Assembly (NCBI RefSeq): GCF_041886205.1
Contig: NZ_CP169029.1
Direction: 5' to 3' (one strand)
DNA from: Escherichia coli
GTDB taxonomy: Bacteria > Pseudomonadota > Gammaproteobacteria > Enterobacterales > Enterobacteriaceae
DNA length: 64,000 nt
Within the stretch, counting starts at the first letter, position 1, and every line of letters begins with the position of its first letter. This document shows positions 811 to 63,596 of this stretch, one piece after another. The translations under genes and the position numbers were made by a program. The notes beneath the pieces are model-generated. The model searched no databases and had not been told where the DNA came from. It saw nothing but the letters and a program-made list of their open reading frames with translations.

Positions 811-2460
811 TTAACCGCGCCACGCTTTATAGCGGTTAATCAGACCATTGGTCGAGCTATCGTGGCTGCTGATTTCTTTATCATCTTTCAGCTCTGGCAG
901 AATACGGTTCGCCAGCTGTTTACCCAGTTCCACGCCCCACTGGTCGAAGGTGAAGATGTTCAGGATCACGCCCTGAGTAAAGATTTTGTGCTCATACAGC
1001 GCAATCAACGCACCCAGGCTGAACGGAGTGATTTCGCGCAGCAGGATAGAGTTGGTCGGGCGGTTACCTTCGAACACTTTGAACGGCACCACGTAGTCAA
1101 GCGTTGCCGGATCTTTACCCTGATCGCGATATTCCTGCTCAACCACTTCGCGGGATTTACCAAACGCCAGCGCTTCGGTCTGAGCAAAGAAGTTAGACAG
1201 CAGTTTCTGGTGATGATCAGAGAGCGGGTTATGGGTGATAGCCGGAGCGATGAAATCGCACGGTACCATTTTGGTTCCCTGGTGGATCAGCTGGTAGAAC
1301 GCGTGCTGACCGTTAGTGCCTGGTTCACCCCAGATAATCGGGCCAGTCTGGTAATCCACAACGTTACCGTTACGGTCAACATACTTACCGTTGGACTCCA
1401 TATTGCCCTGCTGGAAGTACGCCGCGAAACGGTGCATATACTGGTCATACGGCAGAATCGCTTCAGTTTCCGCACCAAAGAAATTGTTGTACCAGATGCC
1501 AATCAGCGCCAGCAGGACAGGCAGGTTTTTCTCGGCAGGCGTGGTGGAGAAATGCTTGTCCATCGCGTGTGCGCCAGAAAGCAGTTCAACGAAGTTATCA
1601 AAGCCGATGGAGAGAACAATCGACAGGCCAATCGCTGACCACAAAGAGCAACGGCCGCCAACCCAGTCCCAGAACTCGAACATGTTGGCAGTATCAATAC
1701 CAAACTCGCCAACGGCTTTGGCATTGGTGGAAAGCGCCGCAAAGTGTTTTGCAACGTGTTTTTCATCACCTGCCGCTTTCAGGAACCAGTCACGCGCGCT
1801 ATGGGCGTTGGTCATGGTTTCCTGAGTGGTGAAGGTTTTAGATGCTACCAGGAACAGCGTGGTTTCCGGGTTTACTTTTTTCAGCACTTCCGCGATGTGA
1901 GTCCCATCGACGTTAGAAACAAAGTGCATGTTCAGGTGGTTTTTGTACGGACGCAGAGCTTCGGTCACCATGTATGGGCCGAGGTCAGAACCGCCGATCC
2001 CGATGTTCACTACGTCAGTGATTGCTTTGCCGGTATAACCCTTCCACTCACCGGAAATAATCGCTTCTGAGAAGGTTTTCATCTTCTCCAGCACCGCGTT
2101 GACTTCCGGCATTACGTCTTTGCCATCAACCAGAATCGGGGTATTGCTACGGTTACGCAGCGCTACGTGCAGCACGGCACGGTTTTCAGTGCGGTTGATC
2201 TTCTCGCCAGAGAACATCGACTTAATCGCGCCCGCCAGATCGCACTCTTTCGCCAGATCTTGTAATTTCGCCAGCGTCTCTTCAGTGATGCGGTTTTTGG
2301 AGTAATCCACCAGCATCTGATCGTCGAATGTTGCGGAGAACTTAGAAAAACGATCGCCGTCTTTAGCAAAAAGATCGGCGATCGTAACGTCTTTCATTTC
2401 ATCGAAGTGTTTCTGTAGTGCCTGCCAGGCAGCGGTCTGCGTTGGATTGATGTTTTTCAT
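811..2460 (-). CDS. pgi: Glucose-6-phosphate isomerase
   Basis: 549-aa product starting [19 protein letters not shown]..., full-length recognisable Pgi; ATG at 2458-2460 (the ORF track extends 2 codons upstream to a TTG). Confidence 0.97.
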
Positions 2461-2643
2461 TAGCAATACTCTTCTGATTTTGAGAATTGTGACTTTGGAA
2501 GATTGTAGCGCCAGTCACAGAAAAATGTGATGGTTTTAGTGCCGTTAGCGTAATGTTGAGTGTAAACCCTTAGCGCAGTGAAGCATTTATTAGCTGAACT
2601 ACTGATCGCCAGGAGTGGATGAAAAATCCGCATGACCCCATCG

Positions 2644-2984: not shown

Positions 2985-4334
2985 ATGTCTGAAATTGTTG
3001 TCTCCAAATTTGGCGGTACCAGCGTAGCTGATTTTGACGCCATGAACCGCAGCGCTGATATTGTGCTTTCTGATGCCAACGTGCGTTTAGTAGTCCTCTC
3101 GGCTTCTGCTGGTATCACTAATCTGCTGGTCGCTTTAGCGGAAGGGCTGGAACCTGGCGAGCGATTCGAAAAACTCGACGCAATCCGCAATATCCAGTTT
3201 GCCATTCTGGAACGTCTGCGTTACCCGAACGTTATCCGTGAAGAGATTGAACGTCTGCTGGAGAACATTACTGTTCTGGCAGAAGCGGCGGCGCTGGCAA
3301 CGTCTCCGGCGCTGACAGATGAGCTGGTCAGCCACGGCGAGCTGATGTCGACCCTGCTGTTTGTCGAAATCCTGCGCGAACGCGATGTTCAGGCACAGTG
3401 GTTTGATGTACGTAAAGTGATGCGTACCAACGACCGATTTGGTCGTGCAGAGCCAGATGTAGCCGCGCTGGCGGAACTGGCCGCGCTGCAGCTGCTCCCA
3501 CGCCTCAATGAAGGCTTAGTGATCACCCAGGGATTTATCGGTAGCGAAAATAAAGGTCGTACAACGACGCTTGGCCGTGGAGGCAGCGATTATACGGCAG
3601 CCTTGCTGGCGGAGGCTTTACACGCATCTCGTGTTGATATCTGGACCGACGTCCCGGGCATCTACACCACCGATCCACGCGTGGTTTCCGCAGCAAAACG
3701 CATTGATGAAATCGCGTTTGCCGAAGCGGCAGAGATGGCAACTTTTGGTGCAAAAGTACTGCATCCGGCAACGTTGCTACCCGCAGTACGCAGCGATATC
3801 CCGGTCTTTGTCGGCTCCAGCAAAGACCCACGCGCAGGTGGTACGCTGGTGTGCAATAAAACTGAAAATCCGCCGCTGTTCCGCGCGCTGGCGCTTCGTC
3901 GCAATCAGACTCTGCTCACTTTGCACAGCCTGAATATGCTGCATTCTCGCGGCTTCCTCGCGGAAGTTTTCGGCATCCTCGCGCGGCATAACATTTCGGT
4001 AGACTTAATCACCACGTCAGAAGTGAGCGTGGCATTAACCCTTGATACCACCGGTTCAACCTCCACTGGCGATACGTTGCTGACGCAATCTCTGCTGATG
4101 GAGCTTTCCGCACTGTGCCGGGTGGAGGTGGAAGAAGGTCTGGCGCTGGTCGCGTTGATTGGCAATGACCTGTCAAAAGCCTGCGGCGTTGGCAAAGAGG
4201 TATTCGGCGTACTGGAACCGTTCAACATTCGCATGATTTGTTATGGCGCATCCAGCCATAACCTGTGCTTCCTGGTGCCCGGCGAAGATGCCGAGCAGGT
4301 GGTGCAGAAGCTGCATTTTAATTTGTTTGAGTAA
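2985..4334 (+). CDS. lysC: Lysine-sensitive aspartokinase III
   Basis: 449-aa ORF MSEIVVSKFGGTSVADFDAMNRSADIVLSD..., ATG at 2985. Confidence 0.97.
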   Translation: MSEIVVSKFGGTSVADFDAMNRSADIVLSDANVRLVVLSASAGITNLLVALAEGLEPGERFEKLDAIRNIQFAILERLRYPNVIREEIERLLENITVLAEAAALATSPALTDELVSHGELMSTLLFVEILRERDVQAQWFDVRKVMRTNDRFGRAEPDVAALAELAALQLLPRLNEGLVITQGFIGSENKGRTTTLGRGGSDYTAALLAEALHASRVDIWTDVPGIYTTDPRVVSAAKRIDEIAFAEAAEMATFGAKVLHPATLLPAVRSDIPVFVGSSKDPRAGGTLVCNKTENPPLFRALALRRNQTLLTLHSLNMLHSRGFLAEVFGILARHNISVDLITTSEVSVALTLDTTGSTSTGDTLLTQSLLMELSALCRVEVEEGLALVALIGNDLSKACGVGKEVFGVLEPFNIRMICYGASSHNLCFLVPGEDAEQVVQKLHFNLFE

Positions 4335-4478
4335 TATTTCCCTACTGGCGTATAACGCTCACCAATTGTTATACGCCATCCTCACTGAAAATATAGATTA
4401 AATAATATCTGAAAAATAAAATCACTCCTGTAGAACAGTATTATAATCACCGAAAAATATTATTTAACAGGAGTGTTA

Positions 4479-5405
4479 ATGGCTACTTTAATGGAAAAAG
4501 ATGCACTTTTAAATGGCACCAGTCAGTGCATCGCGTTTTTATCAAATATCGTTGATAATTGCTCAGTTTCGTCACGTCAGGATTCAGGCGATGATCTCAC
4601 ACGATTAGTCAGCTATCGCGATTATCTTTACTCTACCCCCGCTGAACTTGTTGATTTTACACAGGGAAAGAGTCACCTTCAGCAGATTAGAACTCAATAT
4701 CAGCATGAATTCAACAATACTACGCATTCAGAAAATAAAGCATCTTTTGATTCTATTTGGCAGCGTCTGACAAATCATGAAGTCACACCGCAACAGCATC
4801 CCATTGGTTTTGTTTTAGGTGGGCAACCCGGAGCAGGTAAATCATCTCTGATTGAATTAGCCAAAAGAGAGACAAAAGATAATATAATGATTATTAACGG
4901 TGATGATTTTCGATTTCTACACCCTGATTTTAATTATATCTACCAAAATTATGGGGATGATTTTGTTACCCATACAGCGAAATTTTCCGGCGAAACGGTC
5001 GAACGTGCAATTGAGAGAGCGATAGTCAGTAAACTCAACATTGTTGTCGAAGGAACATTTCGTAATGCCGCTACGCCGTTACAAACATTAAAAAAACTCA
5101 AAGATGCAGGCTACCAAACAGAAGTCATGATAAAAACAACCTCAGCGGCATTAAGCTGGGAAAGCACCAATGAACGGTATAATAAGGACAAAGAGGCGGG
5201 AAATATTGCCCGAAAAGTGGATAAAAACCACCATGATATCGTCACCGGTTTGCTGGCAGAAAATGCCCGCAAGGTGTTTGCTTCGAACCTGTCAGATAAG
5301 TTTGCGGTGTATTCGCGTGAGAAGATGATATTTAGTTCACAAGCGGCAACGAATGACGATATTGCAACGCTTATACAGAATGAAATCAGCGGGAATACAC
5401 AATAA
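4479..5405 (+). CDS. Zeta-toxin-family P-loop kinase with ~100-aa N-terminal extension (EzeT-like single-chain toxin-antitoxin candidate)
   Basis: ATG at 4479 preceded by AGGAG (4468-4472); the ORF track starts 2 codons earlier at a GTG (4473). Walker A GGQPGAGKS at 4818-4844 and GDDFR at 4899-4913, as in zeta/PezT UNAG kinases; gene is visibly AT-rich compared with its neighbours. Confidence 0.8.
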   Translation: MATLMEKDALLNGTSQCIAFLSNIVDNCSVSSRQDSGDDLTRLVSYRDYLYSTPAELVDFTQGKSHLQQIRTQYQHEFNNTTHSENKASFDSIWQRLTNHEVTPQQHPIGFVLGGQPGAGKSSLIELAKRETKDNIMIINGDDFRFLHPDFNYIYQNYGDDFVTHTAKFSGETVERAIERAIVSKLNIVVEGTFRNAATPLQTLKKLKDAGYQTEVMIKTTSAALSWESTNERYNKDKEAGNIARKVDKNHHDIVTGLLAENARKVFASNLSDKFAVYSREKMIFSSQAATNDDIATLIQNEISGNTQ

Positions 5406-5440
5406 TAATAAGAGCTGATGGCGTGAAATAACGCCGGGCA

Positions 5441-6241
5441 TCACGCCCGGCGCATTACCGTCTGGTACATTAAGCTATCCAGTTCCTTAACGTCCCCTTC
5501 TCTGCTATCCGGTAACAGCGGTGGAATTTCCCCACGCGCCAGTTCCGCACGAATAAACGCATGTAACAATGGACGGCGCGGACCATATTCCGCTTCTCCT
5601 GCGCGCTGTTTACGTCCCAGTAATTCGTCTATTTCTGCACGTAACGGCGCATCAAGTTCACTTCCCGCCAGTAGCTCAGCAAAGCGCATTGGCGGCACGC
5701 CTTTTCCCGCTTCGACCCAGCGCACGGCCAGCAGCGGACGCAGCACGTAAAAGTATTTTTTCAGTCGAACTTCATCGCCCTGCAAATATCCGCGGAAGTT
5801 TTTCTGCGCCATCGAATAGTAATGCCAGCGCGCACGCAGCGGAGAAAACCACATTGGGACCATTGCCTTAAGCGCCGTTATCGTTTCTTCATCTTGTTGA
5901 TAGACCACCGGAGAATCCAGCCATTCTATCAGCGTCGGGTTCGCGCCTTTCAATAATCCCAGCGCCTTACGCCACTCCCAACCGGAAACATCTAACTCGT
6001 CGTCGATGGGCAGCTCGATAACATCGCGCGGCGGCTCCACCCGCAGATACCATTCCAGCGGGTGAACATACAAAAACCGTACATCGTAGTCGCTGTCGGG
6101 CGAGGCAAACCCCCAGCCGCGGCTCCCGGATTCACAGGCATACAGCACTTTCACGCCGTAGCGCCGTTCTATTTCTTTTAACTGCTGCGATACCCGTTCG
6201 CGCATCGCAGCACTGACTCCATTTAATGGCATGTTACTCAC
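5441..6241 (-). CDS. Pol-beta-superfamily nucleotidyltransferase-fold protein of unknown specificity
   Basis: 266-aa ORF from a GTG at 6241 that overlaps the upstream SPFH stop; alternative in-frame ATG at 6232. Contains GS-x10-DYDV (coding 6083-6127), the classic hG[GS]...DhDh NTase signature, plus downstream acidic residues (IELPIDDELD). Confidence 0.75.
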   Translation of the reverse strand: MSNMPLNGVSAAMRERVSQQLKEIERRYGVKVLYACESGSRGWGFASPDSDYDVRFLYVHPLEWYLRVEPPRDVIELPIDDELDVSGWEWRKALGLLKGANPTLIEWLDSPVVYQQDEETITALKAMVPMWFSPLRARWHYYSMAQKNFRGYLQGDEVRLKKYFYVLRPLLAVRWVEAGKGVPPMRFAELLAGSELDAPLRAEIDELLGRKQRAGEAEYGPRRPLLHAFIRAELARGEIPPLLPDSREGDVKELDSLMYQTVMRRA

Positions 6242-7365
6242 CCTTTGATATTAACCAACCCATGCAGAACCTGATCCAGACCGCCAAATACAGAGATGTT
6301 ATCGATCCGCTCAGCCACTCTCTCCAGCGTTTCTAGCTCTTTTAAACGCAACGCTACCGGATTGTTCTCCATGACTTTGGCGGTGTTCAGTAACGAGCGC
6401 GTCGCTGCCGTTTCTTCACGTCGGCGAATCACATTCGCCTGCGCAGATTTCTCCGCCTCAACCAGCTGCGCAAGGATATTTTTCATATCGCCAGGCAGGA
6501 CGATATCTTTCACCCCTAATGAAGCAATCTCCATACCAAATGGCAACATGCGCGATTTCACCTGTTCGCTGACAACGTCATCAATGACCTGTTTATCTTC
6601 CAGCAGTTCATCCAGCGTACGAGTACCTACCGCTTCACGCAGGGCAAATTGCAATTCCCGATACAAATGATCAATCGGCTTCGTTAACTGACTAAATGCT
6701 AATAACACGTCGCTGTAGCGCCAGTTAGCCGCGAGGTTAATCCGCAGATTGACCTTATCTTTCGTTAAGATTTCTTGCCCGCTGACTTCCAGTACCTGCA
6801 AGCGGGTGTCAACCACTTCAGTTTCAACCAGATGGTTAATTTTCCAGTACGCGGTAAGCCCCGGCGGTAACAGCGCCTGCGTTTCACCATCGATTTTCAG
6901 CACGCCTACATGCCAGGCCGGAACCTGCACCGTCAGTATCGCATCGCGGCCTTTAACAACTCCTTTGCGCCGTGGCTGTAATACCGCATTCATCACCTCC
7001 GTTTGTACCGGGACTTGCTGCGTATTCATCCGCACCAGCGTCAAATCATCCTCTACACGCCAGTACAAACGACGCGTTGATGGCAGCAGGATCTCCAGCA
7101 AAATACCGTCCATATACAACGCCCCGGCTTCAGTCTCCGACAAGTCTGCCACCAGGCAATATTTCTCCACCCAATCAGGCTGAAAGCGGCGCAAATAGTC
7201 CGCCAGCACGTCGGGAACTTCGCTACCATCCAGCGTAATCAGCAACACTTCCGGGGTATTAAACCAGGGTAAAAAATGCTCGCCTGCATGTAGCACTTTG
7301 TAGTAATCGCCGTTTCTGGAGAGTAATGCCAGCTGATCTTTTCTTACGCTTATTTTTTTAATCAT
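6238..7365 (-). CDS. SPFH/band-7 (stomatin/prohibitin-like) domain protein with no predicted membrane anchor and a ~135-aa N-terminal domain of unknown function
   Basis: 375-aa ORF, ATG at 7363-7365 with AGGAA 7 nt upstream; SPFH hallmarks (PPGLTAYWK...TKDKVNLRINLAANWRY...GMEIASLGVKDIVLPGDMK) and C-terminal coiled-coil-like AEKSAQANVIRRREE...; no hydrophobic stretch of TM length seen by eye. Confidence 0.8.
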   Translation of the reverse strand: MIKKISVRKDQLALLSRNGDYYKVLHAGEHFLPWFNTPEVLLITLDGSEVPDVLADYLRRFQPDWVEKYCLVADLSETEAGALYMDGILLEILLPSTRRLYWRVEDDLTLVRMNTQQVPVQTEVMNAVLQPRRKGVVKGRDAILTVQVPAWHVGVLKIDGETQALLPPGLTAYWKINHLVETEVVDTRLQVLEVSGQEILTKDKVNLRINLAANWRYSDVLLAFSQLTKPIDHLYRELQFALREAVGTRTLDELLEDKQVIDDVVSEQVKSRMLPFGMEIASLGVKDIVLPGDMKNILAQLVEAEKSAQANVIRRREETAATRSLLNTAKVMENNPVALRLKELETLERVAERIDNISVFGGLDQVLHGLVNIKG

Positions 7366-7893
7366 TATCTATTCCTTGCTTAACAGCCGTCGCGGAAGCA
7401 GACACGAAGCGACAGGGGAATTCCCTTTTGCCTGTTACCCGGCGTCTTTATCGGCGACGTTATCGGGGATCGCTGACTGCGCAATCCCTCATTTTTTATT
7501 TAATAAGTTACAACCAGTATTCATTTCAGGAATGAATGTGGGAATCGAACCCATAATTGGCGTCAAAGGCTGACGGAACACGCCCGGAAAACAGCCTGAC
7601 CGTTCCTGGTGTGCCGACGGGGTTTAACCCCCTTTGAAATTCAGTTTCAACGCATAGGAGTTATTGCGAGAATCGTGCCAGAAGTAAAAAAAACACCTAA
7701 TCAAATGAAAAATAAAGATTTAATAAATTATTGTTTTTTATTGGGGGAAAACTTTTCGCTAAATTTGTATCTGTATTTATCATCAATTATCAAGAAAGAT
7801 AAATATTTCAGAAGAGAATAAAGGAATATTATCAGTTCTGCTTGCAAATGAATTCCCGTACACTGAATCCATCGGCTCACTGAGGGCACCATC

Positions 7894-8166
7894 ATGGCAC
7901 TCCCCCGTATTACCCAAAAAGAGATGACTGAACGCGAGCAGCGTGAACTTAAAACACTGCTGGATCGGGCGCGGATTGCGCATGGTCGCGTACTGACCAA
8001 CTCCGAAACCAACAGCATTAAGAAAGAGTACATCGATAAATTAATGGTTGAGCGTGAGGCTGAAGCAAAAAAAGCCCGCCAATTGAAGAAAAAGCAGGCT
8101 TATAAACCGGATCCTGAAGCGTCATTTAGCTGGTCAGCAAATACGTCGACGCGCGGCAGGCGCTGA
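7894..8166 (+). CDS. yjbD: YjbD (DUF3811 family small protein)
   Basis: 90-aa ORF MALPRITQKEMTEREQRELK..., convergent and abutting rluF as in E. coli. Confidence 0.85.
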   Translation: MALPRITQKEMTEREQRELKTLLDRARIAHGRVLTNSETNSIKKEYIDKLMVEREAEAKKARQLKKKQAYKPDPEASFSWSANTSTRGRR

Positions 8167-9039
8167 TTAGCGCCCCTTCTTTTTTCGCCCCGGCGAGGTA
8201 AAACGCTTACCGTTGGACGCCGGGCGACCGCCTTTTTCCGCCGTTTTTTCCATCTTAACGACTGGGCGTTTGATGCCCGCCGTTTTCGGTTTGGCCTTCG
8301 CTTTAGGTTTTGCCTCGGAAGAGGAATTTTCGATGAGTTTAAAGAGGTCGATTAACTCATCGTCAGTTAAATCGCGCCACTCACCCAGCGGAATGCCGCT
8401 TAAACTGACGTTCATAATGCGCGTACGTTCCAGCTTTTTCACTTCGTAACCAAAGTGCTCGCACATGCGACGGATCTGACGGTTCAGCCCCTGCACCAGG
8501 GTAATGCGGAAGACAAACGGCGCTTCTTTTTTGACTTTGCACTTTTTCGTCACCGTCCCGAGGATCGGCACTCCCGCCCCCATACCACGAATAAATTCAT
8601 CGGTAATCGGTTTATCGACCGTCACCAGATACTCTTTCTCATGATCGTTACCCGCACGGAGGATCTTATTCACCAGATCGCCGTGATTGGTGAGGAAAAT
8701 CAGCCCCTGGGAGTCTTTATCCAGGCGGCCAATCGGGAACACGCGTTTGCTGTGGTTAACGAAATCGACAATGTTATCGCGCTCGCCATCTTCGGTGGTG
8801 CTGACAATACCGACGGGCTTGTTCAGGGCGATAAGTACCAAATCTTCGGCTTCCCGAGGCTCAATCAACTGACCGTTTACTTTCACAACGTCGCCGGGTT
8901 TCACCTGATCGCCAATGGTGGCTCGCTTGCCATTAAGGAACACATTGCCTTGCTCGATATAGCGATCCGCTTCGCGGCGTGAGCAAATTCCGCTTTCGCT
9001 GATGTATTTATTTAAACGGACTGATGAGTCGGGCAGCAT
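8167..9039 (-). CDS. rluF: 23S rRNA pseudouridine synthase F
   Basis: 290-aa ORF with S4 domain N-terminus ([26 protein letters not shown]) and RsuA-type catalytic core, Lys/Ala/Pro-rich basic C-terminal tail. Confidence 0.93.
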
Positions 9040-63076: not shown

Positions 63077-63154
63077 TCACCACATCAACCAGGCAACATG
63101 CCCGACTTGTTGAATGCAATAAACAGAAGGAAAAAACAGGGAGGAGAAAAGAAG

Positions 63155-63230
63155 TGGTGCTGATAGGCAGATTCGAACTGCCGACCTCACCCTTACCAAG
63201 GGTGCGCTCTACCAACTGAGCTATATCAGC
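63155..63230 (-). tRNA. thrT: tRNA-Thr (GGU)
   Basis: Reverse complement reads GCTGATATAGCTCAGTTGGTAGAGCGCACCCTTGGTAAGGGTGAGGTCGGCAGTTCGAATCTGCCTATCAGCACCA. Confidence 0.97.
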
Positions 63231-63236
63231 ACATCT

Positions 63237-63311
<75 letters not shown>

Positions 63312-63427
63312 ATCCTGGAACTCGGCTACCTGATTTTCATTCTGCACTGAATATCGAGAGAAGCTCTCTTTATTCGAGCCGGTAAGCGAACTTATCGTCT
63401 CGGGCTACGCCATCGCGTGGCCGAAAT

Positions 63428-63512
<85 letters not shown>

Positions 63513-63520
63513 GGACTTGA

Positions 63521-63596
<76 letters not shown>

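Follow-up and report, generated by a model that had tools for sequence, protein, structure and literature searches.

An SPFH protein of Escherichia coli without a membrane anchor, its SPFH-derived N-terminal repeats and its probable association with RNA repair

Introduction

What does a bacterial SPFH protein do when nothing in its sequence would anchor it in a membrane? This question is raised by an open reading frame (ORF) in a 64,000-nucleotide stretch of an Escherichia coli chromosome (RefSeq assembly GCF_041886205.1, contig NZ_CP169029.1), which we refer to as a whole as the window. An earlier note, made from the sequence alone, had pointed out that the encoded SPFH protein lacks the usual N-terminal membrane anchor and carries about 135 extra residues at its N-terminus, which it took to be a novel domain, unusual in an SPFH protein and possibly the sensing or targeting part of a module with the adjacent nucleotidyltransferase (NTase). 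We find that the gene probably encodes a cytosolic member of an RNA-repair-associated SPFH/Band-7 family, which would form a soluble oligomer serving as scaffold or cage in tRNA repair, and that its N-terminal region appears to have been copied from the SPFH domain itself.

Results

The gene and the parts of its product are as follows.

6238-7365, minus strand: SPFH ('slipin family') protein gene, first gene of the operon; ATG start, 375 amino acids (aa)
7159-7365, minus strand: repeat R1, aa 1-69; five beta-strands and two short helices
6940-7158, minus strand: repeat R2, aa 70-142; five beta-strands and a helix, then a basic linker, QPRRKGVVKGRD
6496-6939, minus strand: SPFH core, aa 143-290; opens with a third copy (R3) of the beta-module
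6241-6495, minus strand: C-terminal helical region, aa 291-375; helices 292-334, 336-355 and 363-374

The ORF is present with the start, strand and length first described, and a Shine-Dalgarno sequence, AAGGAA, lies at 7377-7372, 6 nt ahead of the ATG at 7365. The lack of a hydrophobic stretch of transmembrane (TM) length was borne out: the highest 19-residue Kyte-Doolittle (KD) mean is 1.13, reached inside the SPFH core, and the N-terminal region attains at most 1.0 over the same length. No hydrophobic N-terminus was found in 84 homologues, whose first ~48 residues stay at or below 0.85, and neither a lipobox (same 84 homologues) nor an amphipathic N-terminus was seen in the E. coli protein or its homologues. 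A segment at aa ~137-160 attains KD values of 1.6-1.8 in nine of the 84; it has proline and histidine within it, and its E. coli counterpart is modelled as the first two SPFH beta-strands. The start codon also stands; a TM helix, a lipidation site and a reassigned start were each looked for and none was found. In the 84 homologues, too, a few residues at most separate the protein's start from the first conserved strand (M-x-K-R-x-x-V-K-K-N-E-R...), and in each of the 80 best genome loci the alignment of the N-terminal region begins at residue 1-7. Among four enterobacterial orthologues the ratio of nonsynonymous to synonymous substitution rates (dN/dS) is 0.11-0.31 for residues 1-142 versus 0.02-0.06 for the remainder, values that are approximate because dS was saturated; the N-terminal 142 residues evolve several-fold faster than the rest of the protein, and these ratios point to a region that is translated, constrained and under purifying selection. 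The AlphaFold2 (AF2) model has a mean predicted local distance difference test score (pLDDT) of 85 over the whole protein and 89 over residues 1-142, in keeping with a real, conserved and folded part of the protein.

The extra stretch therefore exists, at about 142-146 aa slightly longer than the ~135 first claimed, but it is not the novel, unrelated domain it was taken for: it is made up of two repeats in tandem, homologous to the beta-strands with which the SPFH domain begins. Profile-profile comparison with hhalign, built on a 46-sequence alignment (A2), gave probabilities of 96.7% for R1 against R2, 94.2% for R1 against R3 and 96.6% for R2 against R3 (E 5.5e-10), and R1 (residues 4-60), R2 (71-130) and the SPFH first strands (144-195) match one another with E values of 1e-7 to 4e-10. 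Profiles were needed to show the repeats because self-comparison by BLASTP is weak; it finds a self-match, GALYMDGILLEILLPSTRRLYWRV / GVLKIDGETQALLPPGLTAYWKI, inside the protein, and a direct comparison of the N-terminal region with the C-terminal part gives an E value of 0.04. When the N-terminal regions of the 46 homologues were scanned alone, Pfam Band_7 was matched in 25 (best E 2e-6), with residues ~6-41 falling on Band_7 profile positions 2-35 in the six that were re-checked. The E. coli N-domain itself has no match in Pfam, NCBIfam or PADLOC, being too diverged for Band_7 detection.

The AF2 model repeats the same five-strand pattern three times (E3-44, E70-114 and E143-186), with strands E3-7, 11-17, 20-25, 28-32 and 39-44 in R1 and E70-74, 79-85, 88-93, 98-102 and 108-114 in R2. 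Copies 1 and 2 are each followed by a short helical segment, while copy 3 runs into the SPFH alpha/beta core. The only high-probability Foldseek matches to the AF2 N-domain are likewise SPFH proteins (E at or above 0.13). Homology to the repeats found in the major vault protein (MVP) was also considered, for the long Foldseek alignments obtained with the full-length model, and was rejected after searches with the N-domain only. From profiles and model together, we conclude that the N-terminal repeats appear to have arisen by duplication of the SPFH domain's first beta-module.

Downstream of the repeats the protein is a recognisable SPFH protein. Pfam Band_7 covers residues 147-318 with 94.7 bits against a cut-off of 23.6, and a profile search of the PDB returns stomatin (E 1.5e-28, residues 187-374) and HflK (E 4e-8). 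The alpha/beta SPFH core fold, followed by long helices, is present in the AF2 model, for which Foldseek gives human stomatin at E 2e-15 and, overall, stomatin, HflK/C, prohibitin and erlin at E values of 1e-15 to 1e-10. The C-terminal helical region aligns to that of stomatin and carries a near-invariant family motif, RREETAATRSLLNTAKVMExNP...LKELE, whose invariant columns (R315, R316, E317, E318, T322, R323, S324, L325, N327, T328, A329 and others) were drawn from 46 sequences of three phyla or classes. As a candidate interaction surface, the arginine-rich invariant motif RREETAATRSLLNTAK of helix 292-334 is preferable to the N-domain.

The family is large. A word-indexed homologue search gave near-identical E. 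coli proteins only, and depth came from tblastn, a scan of GTDB genomes and a library of representatives. Against 1.84 billion representatives, phmmer with E<=1e-3 matched 4914 clusters (50% identity), of which 544 reached E<=1e-30, and most of the 150 best matches align from residue ~1 to ~373. Relatives are encoded in at least 586 species genomes (one genome scanned per species); the 80 best loci, which cover query residues 1-9 to 373-375, belong to Enterobacterales, Pseudomonas, Burkholderiales, Rhodocyclales, Neisseriales and Orbales, and tblastn of plasmid records adds Photobacterium and the Firmicute Subdoligranulum. Protein lengths group at ~375, 445, 500-560 and 637-702 aa. Repeat hidden Markov models (HMMs) found four N-terminal repeats in all seven 515-526-aa proteins tested (from Providencia, Xenorhabdus, Gilliamella, Snodgrassella and a Neisseriaceae bacterium), which represent a duplicated R1-R2 pair, and reading by eye gave three repeats in the 445-aa form and six or more in the 637-702-aa forms. 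The homologues noted with three, four or at least six repeats (L024, L041, L048-L050, L054, L064, L069, L077, P0123, P0141, P0230 and P0243) are 445, 515-562 or 637-702 aa long, and repeat number mostly shifts by one R1-R2 pair (~145 aa).

Genomic context in these relatives links the protein to RNA repair. The regulator gene rtcR lies divergently upstream of the SPFH gene in ~62 of the 80 best loci, and the ligase gene rtcB immediately downstream in ~70 of the 80. In 42 of 84 related loci an RlaP gene follows further downstream in the same orientation. By Pfam, the Burkholderia locus encodes RtcR, RtcB and RlaP, that of Photobacterium RtcR and RtcB, and that of Subdoligranulum RtcB and RlaP. 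In most related loci a sigma-54 motif stands 310-660 nt ahead of the SPFH start and is followed in most by one or two T-arm motifs (GGTTCGAnTCC). The typical order is thus divergent rtcR, sigma-54 promoter, one or two tRNA-like elements, SPFH gene, rtcB and often RlaP, and we conclude that the module is one of RNA repair under RtcR and sigma-54 control and not a stand-alone SPFH and NTase pair.

These neighbours also bear on an alternative in line with the earlier note, namely that the protein is a peripheral inner-membrane scaffold whose N-terminal repeats form a membrane- or partner-targeting module. Membranes are indeed where almost every characterised SPFH protein acts, and in HflK/C-type cages the part of the SPFH domain that the repeats copy, its N-terminal part, lies close to the membrane. 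The moderately hydrophobic beta-segment of nine homologues would suit such a role, but no TM helix, lipobox or amphipathic N-terminus accompanies it, and the conserved operon neighbours are cytosolic RNA enzymes, with no NfeD or membrane-protein gene among them. Two precedents nevertheless favour membrane contact: in Bacillus subtilis, the cytosolic SPFH protein SamI is brought to the membrane by partners, and one paper, by its title, reports eukaryotic vaults associated with membranes in situ. Weighing both sides, we regard a membrane scaffold as unlikely.

In the window the operon takes a smaller form, and the elements upstream of the SPFH gene are the following.

7665-7681, minus strand: sigma-54-type promoter CTGGCACGATTCTCGCA, read from the sequence
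7395-7636, minus strand: structured 5' leader or candidate non-coding RNA, within the ~300-nt leader of the SPFH gene
7636-7617, 7615-7577 and 7452-7395, minus strand: leader hairpins, covarying structure
7553-7539, minus strand: tRNA T-arm-like hairpin TGGGTTCGATTCCCA, part of the leader

The E. coli locus is a reduced form of the operon, made up of the sigma-54 promoter, the structured leader with its T-arm-like hairpin, the SPFH gene and RlaP. A similar arrangement occurs in Citrobacter freundii, where rtcR and SPFH-RlaP occupy the identical position between lysC and yjbD, and SPFH-RlaP without RtcB is also found in Superficieibacter, Mangrovibacter and Hafnia. The window promoter CTGGCACGATTCTCGCA is nearly identical to the E. 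coli rtcBA promoter CTGGCACGACGGTTGCA, and 4857 of 5426 E. coli genomes carry rtcB at another place; control of the window promoter in trans by the resident RtcR is therefore plausible. In one strain (E. coli strain 104, L085 3710-4725) rtcA of the canonical rtcR-rtcBA locus is annotated as frameshifted. Intergenic regions next to rtcR were also aligned in search of an RtcR upstream activating sequence, and only the promoter core and an AT-rich tract align.

The leader itself is a conserved structured RNA. In an alignment of 15 enterobacterial leaders, 95.6% of the cells of 41 predicted pairs are paired, against 43-53% in slid controls, and 30 of the 41 pairs show compensatory changes. RNAalifold also paired the sigma-54 -24 element with sequence downstream of it; this pairing was taken to be spurious and left out of the count. 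The ~58-nt hairpin just ahead of the ribosome-binding site carries conserved CAGGCAAAA...TTCCCCTG motifs and may be a processing site, a protein-binding stem or an attenuator.

Clear tRNA-like elements occur in Beta- and other Gammaproteobacteria, ARAGORN calls aberrant tRNAs immediately ahead of the SPFH gene in 8 of the 17 loci tested, and an alignment of 27 regions (A5) contains two tandem tRNA-like units there, the second with a canonical D-arm and T-arm, an acceptor stem of ~5 bp and no CCA. The first unit often ends ...CCA and directly abuts the second, whose anticodon loops vary between species or are aberrant (for example L001 5588-5752, L019 6552-6713, L028 4429-4593 and 24 others); in one betaproteobacterial metagenome-assembled genome, the 2.5 kb ahead of the SPFH gene contain a run of six or more matches to tRNAs or tRNA-like elements (L067 4539-6661). 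A covariance model built from the 27 non-enterobacterial tandem elements matched the T-arm alone in the window leader (12.9 bits, E 0.008) and gave longer matches, of 15-24 bits, in other Enterobacterales.

The wider locus in the window comprises these further features.

811-2466, minus strand: pgi
2985-4334, plus strand: lysC, core gene, one flank of the insert
4473-5405, plus strand: zeta-toxin-family gene, first of three insert genes; 310 aa
5426-5484, minus strand: probable terminator, GC-rich hairpin and U-run, at the RlaP end; common to the convergent zeta-toxin-like gene
5441-6233, minus strand: RlaP-family nucleotidyltransferase gene (PF10127), second gene of the operon
7894-8166, plus strand: yjbD, core gene, other flank of the insert
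8167-9039, minus strand: rluF, followed in the window by metH and iclR

The lysC-yjbD interval thus holds a three-gene insert of zeta-toxin-family, RlaP and SPFH genes, named in RefSeq "zeta toxin family protein", "nucleotidyltransferase domain-containing protein" and "slipin family protein". This island was found in 1959 of the 5426 complete E. coli genomes, with at least 80% query coverage in 1424. As read from the sequence, the RlaP ATG follows the SPFH stop by 4 nt, which makes RlaP the second gene of the operon, and its product matches the RlaP profile at E 3.4e-95 over positions 1-248 of 249. The operon probably ends at the hairpin and U-run of 5426-5484, the hairpin being based on GCGCCGGGC...GCCCGGCGUUAUUU in a sub-threshold Rfam alignment. 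The zeta-like gene is convergent with RlaP; its product matches Zeta_toxin over residues 103-284 (E 1.5e-40) after an N-terminal extension of ~100 aa, and no obvious epsilon-type antitoxin gene lies beside it in the window. In Citrobacter, a pair of a RelE/ParE toxin and an XRE regulator lies between yjbD and rtcR (L004 3254-3945), a toxin-type pair adjoining the SPFH-RlaP operon and comparable to the zeta-like gene of E. coli.

Several further observations concern the island and its surroundings. The island match is in two pieces in NZ_CP090448.1 and NZ_CP101866.1, both from pigeon E. coli, with a span 776 bp longer than the query and an annotated IS1 family transposase under the split. The Citrobacter record L004 (NZ_CP151862.1) and two further plasmid-labelled records contain pgi, lysC and rluF or are 1.0-4.8 Mb long, and look like chromosomes or chromosome fragments mislabelled in PLSDB. 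At window positions 63150-63590 (minus strand) two matches to the tRNA-like covariance model, of 59 and 51 bits, are presumably ordinary chromosomal tRNA genes.

A variable three-gene island between two core genes, with a zeta toxin family gene adjoining and a RelE/XRE pair nearby in Citrobacter, could instead be a mobile anti-phage or addiction module, in which SPFH, NTase and zeta-like kinase act together and apart from housekeeping RNA repair; RNA-repair systems are, moreover, generally seen as counter-measures to tRNA-cleaving toxins. However, the zeta-like gene lies beside the SPFH gene in the E. coli window only (0 of 84 related loci), whereas linkage to RtcR and RtcB is near-universal. 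PADLOC (PADLOC-DB 2.0) matched neither SPFH nor RlaP, and the zeta-like protein marginally, and no SPFH homologues were found in a phage collection. A dedicated defence or toxin-antitoxin island is thus unlikely in our judgement, and defence by way of repair would be compatible with the RNA-repair scaffold that we favour and is not a true alternative to it.

The reduced form of the locus could mean that in E. coli the operon is a decaying, non-functional remnant that has lost rtcR, rtcB and most of its tRNA-like element. Relative to the common architecture it does lack both genes, its leader retains the T-arm alone under the tRNA-like model, and some strains carry an IS1 insertion in the island. 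Yet both ORFs are full length in the window, and the listed E. coli variants of the SPFH protein are 97-100% identical to the query and nearly all 375 aa long. The dN/dS values lie well below 1 in both halves of the protein, the leader structure is conserved with compensatory changes, and the SPFH-RlaP arrangement persists in Citrobacter, Superficieibacter, Mangrovibacter and Hafnia. We accordingly give decay little credence.

Discussion

Based on these data, a role of the SPFH protein as a scaffold or cage in tRNA repair is most likely, and we propose how such a system would work. It is known that tRNA 5' halves with a terminal 2',3'-cyclic phosphate activate RtcR (PMC7790460). Such halves would activate the RtcR encoded at the separate rtcR-rtcBA locus of E. 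coli, which would then fire the window's sigma-54 promoter in trans, so that SPFH and RlaP would be induced upon tRNA damage. To judge from the titles of solved structures, SPFH proteins assemble into rings or cages by way of their C-terminal helices, and by analogy the E. coli protein may oligomerise through its stomatin-like C-terminal helices into a cytosolic, membrane-free ring or cage. In place of a membrane anchor, the N-terminal repeats would lengthen the assembly's wall or rim, and repeat number (2, 3, 4, 6 or more) would set how long the assembly is. This assembly could scaffold or enclose damaged tRNAs, the tRNA-like RNA transcribed with the operon and the enzymes of repair. At the 3' ends of damaged RNA, RlaP adds one or two nucleoside monophosphates, and it helps to restore aminoacylation of repaired tRNA (bioRxiv 10.64898/2025.12.29.696909); in the assembly it would add its 1-2 nucleotides and RtcB would ligate.

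Several points weigh against this proposal. Neither rtcR nor rtcB lies beside the SPFH gene in the window, so that regulation in trans is an assumption, and an RtcR binding site could not be defined in the window. The N-domain is near-neutral and not basic (isoelectric point 5.7 in the E. coli protein, family median 6.75) and is therefore not an obvious RNA binder. ARAGORN and Rfam, including its tRNA and YrlA models, found nothing in the window leader, which appears tRNA-like no further than the T-arm. For this negative result, and because the covariance model recovers the T-arm only, we do not call the leader a b7a-tRNA, the RNA of the Band-7 module discussed below, and treat it as a probable diverged relative, not a demonstrated one. 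Oligomerisation, RNA binding and contact with RlaP or RtcB are themselves predictions of the proposal. Finally, deletion of PaFlo8 (PA14_60630), a Pseudomonas aeruginosa SPFH gene "embedded within the rtc locus", had no phenotype in growth, virulence, motility, biofilm and peroxide assays (PMC13086221); it should be noted that these assays did not include RNA damage.

A bolder version of the proposal is a membrane-free, vault-like SPFH cage with a repeat-built wall that packages tRNA-like RNA, damaged tRNAs, RtcB and RlaP. We offer it as speculation and think it rather improbable. If true, it would amount to a compartment for RNA repair in prokaryotes and might be a functional forerunner of the eukaryotic vault, and a soluble cage would link SPFH cages, tRNA repair and vault-like particles. 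The variable repeat number leads to a prediction, namely that assembly size scales with the number of repeats. More broadly, the family bears on SPFH proteins away from the membrane and on the non-enzymatic parts of bacterial RNA-repair operons, the scaffold and the tRNA-like RNA, and the minimal SPFH and RlaP version present in about a quarter to a third of complete E. coli genomes gives a handle on them in a tractable host.

The closest known system is the RNA-repair module of a Band-7 protein and b7a-tRNA beside RtcB, which was predicted by Burroughs and Aravind in 2016, as summarised in a later account (bioRxiv 10.1101/312249). As in that account, the E. coli locus pairs a Band-7 protein with RlaP, and its homologues adjoin RtcB, with RtcR, a sigma-54 motif and tRNA-like elements upstream; unlike the module described there, the window locus is without adjacent rtcB and rtcR, and its upstream RNA has a T-arm-like hairpin only. 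PaFlo8 provides a second comparison, since it too is an SPFH gene in an rtc setting. The gene paFlo8 is also present in P. nitroreducens (PMC13086221), and our P. nitroreducens locus (L021) encodes a full-length homologue 57% identical to the E. coli protein; orthology to PaFlo8 itself is presumed.

Among SPFH proteins at large, stomatin and the slipins are the best match in sequence and fold to residues 187-374, C-terminal helices included, but the E. coli protein differs from stomatins in having no hydrophobic hairpin, TM segment or NfeD partner and in carrying two extra SPFH-derived repeats. It shares the lack of predicted TM segments with the soluble bacterial subfamilies SPFH8 and SPFH9, described in 2009 (PMC2636767), and with the cytosolic SPFH protein SamI (YdjI) of B. 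subtilis, which works with the Psp membrane-stress system and not in RNA repair. Like MVP (Foldseek E 7e-11), the protein is probably soluble, with N-terminal tandem beta-repeats, an SPFH-like shoulder and a long helix, and would be associated with small non-coding RNA; its N-terminal repeats, however, are not of the MVP type. The rsr-yrlBA-rtcBA operon of Salmonella offers a parallel in organisation, as an RtcR and sigma-54 operon with a scaffold protein and tRNA-like RNAs ahead of RtcB. Its scaffold Rsr (Ro60) is a TROVE ring unrelated to SPFH, and the Rfam YrlA model has no match in the window leader.

Against this background, to call the E. coli protein unusual overstates the case: SPFH proteins without an anchor are known in SPFH8, SPFH9 and SamI, and this family had been predicted in 2016 as the Band-7 component of operons for RNA repair. 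As the family had already been predicted computationally, the E. coli gene does not represent a new kind of system. What may be new are the SPFH-derived N-terminal repeats of variable number and the minimal E. coli SPFH-RlaP version with its remodelled leader.

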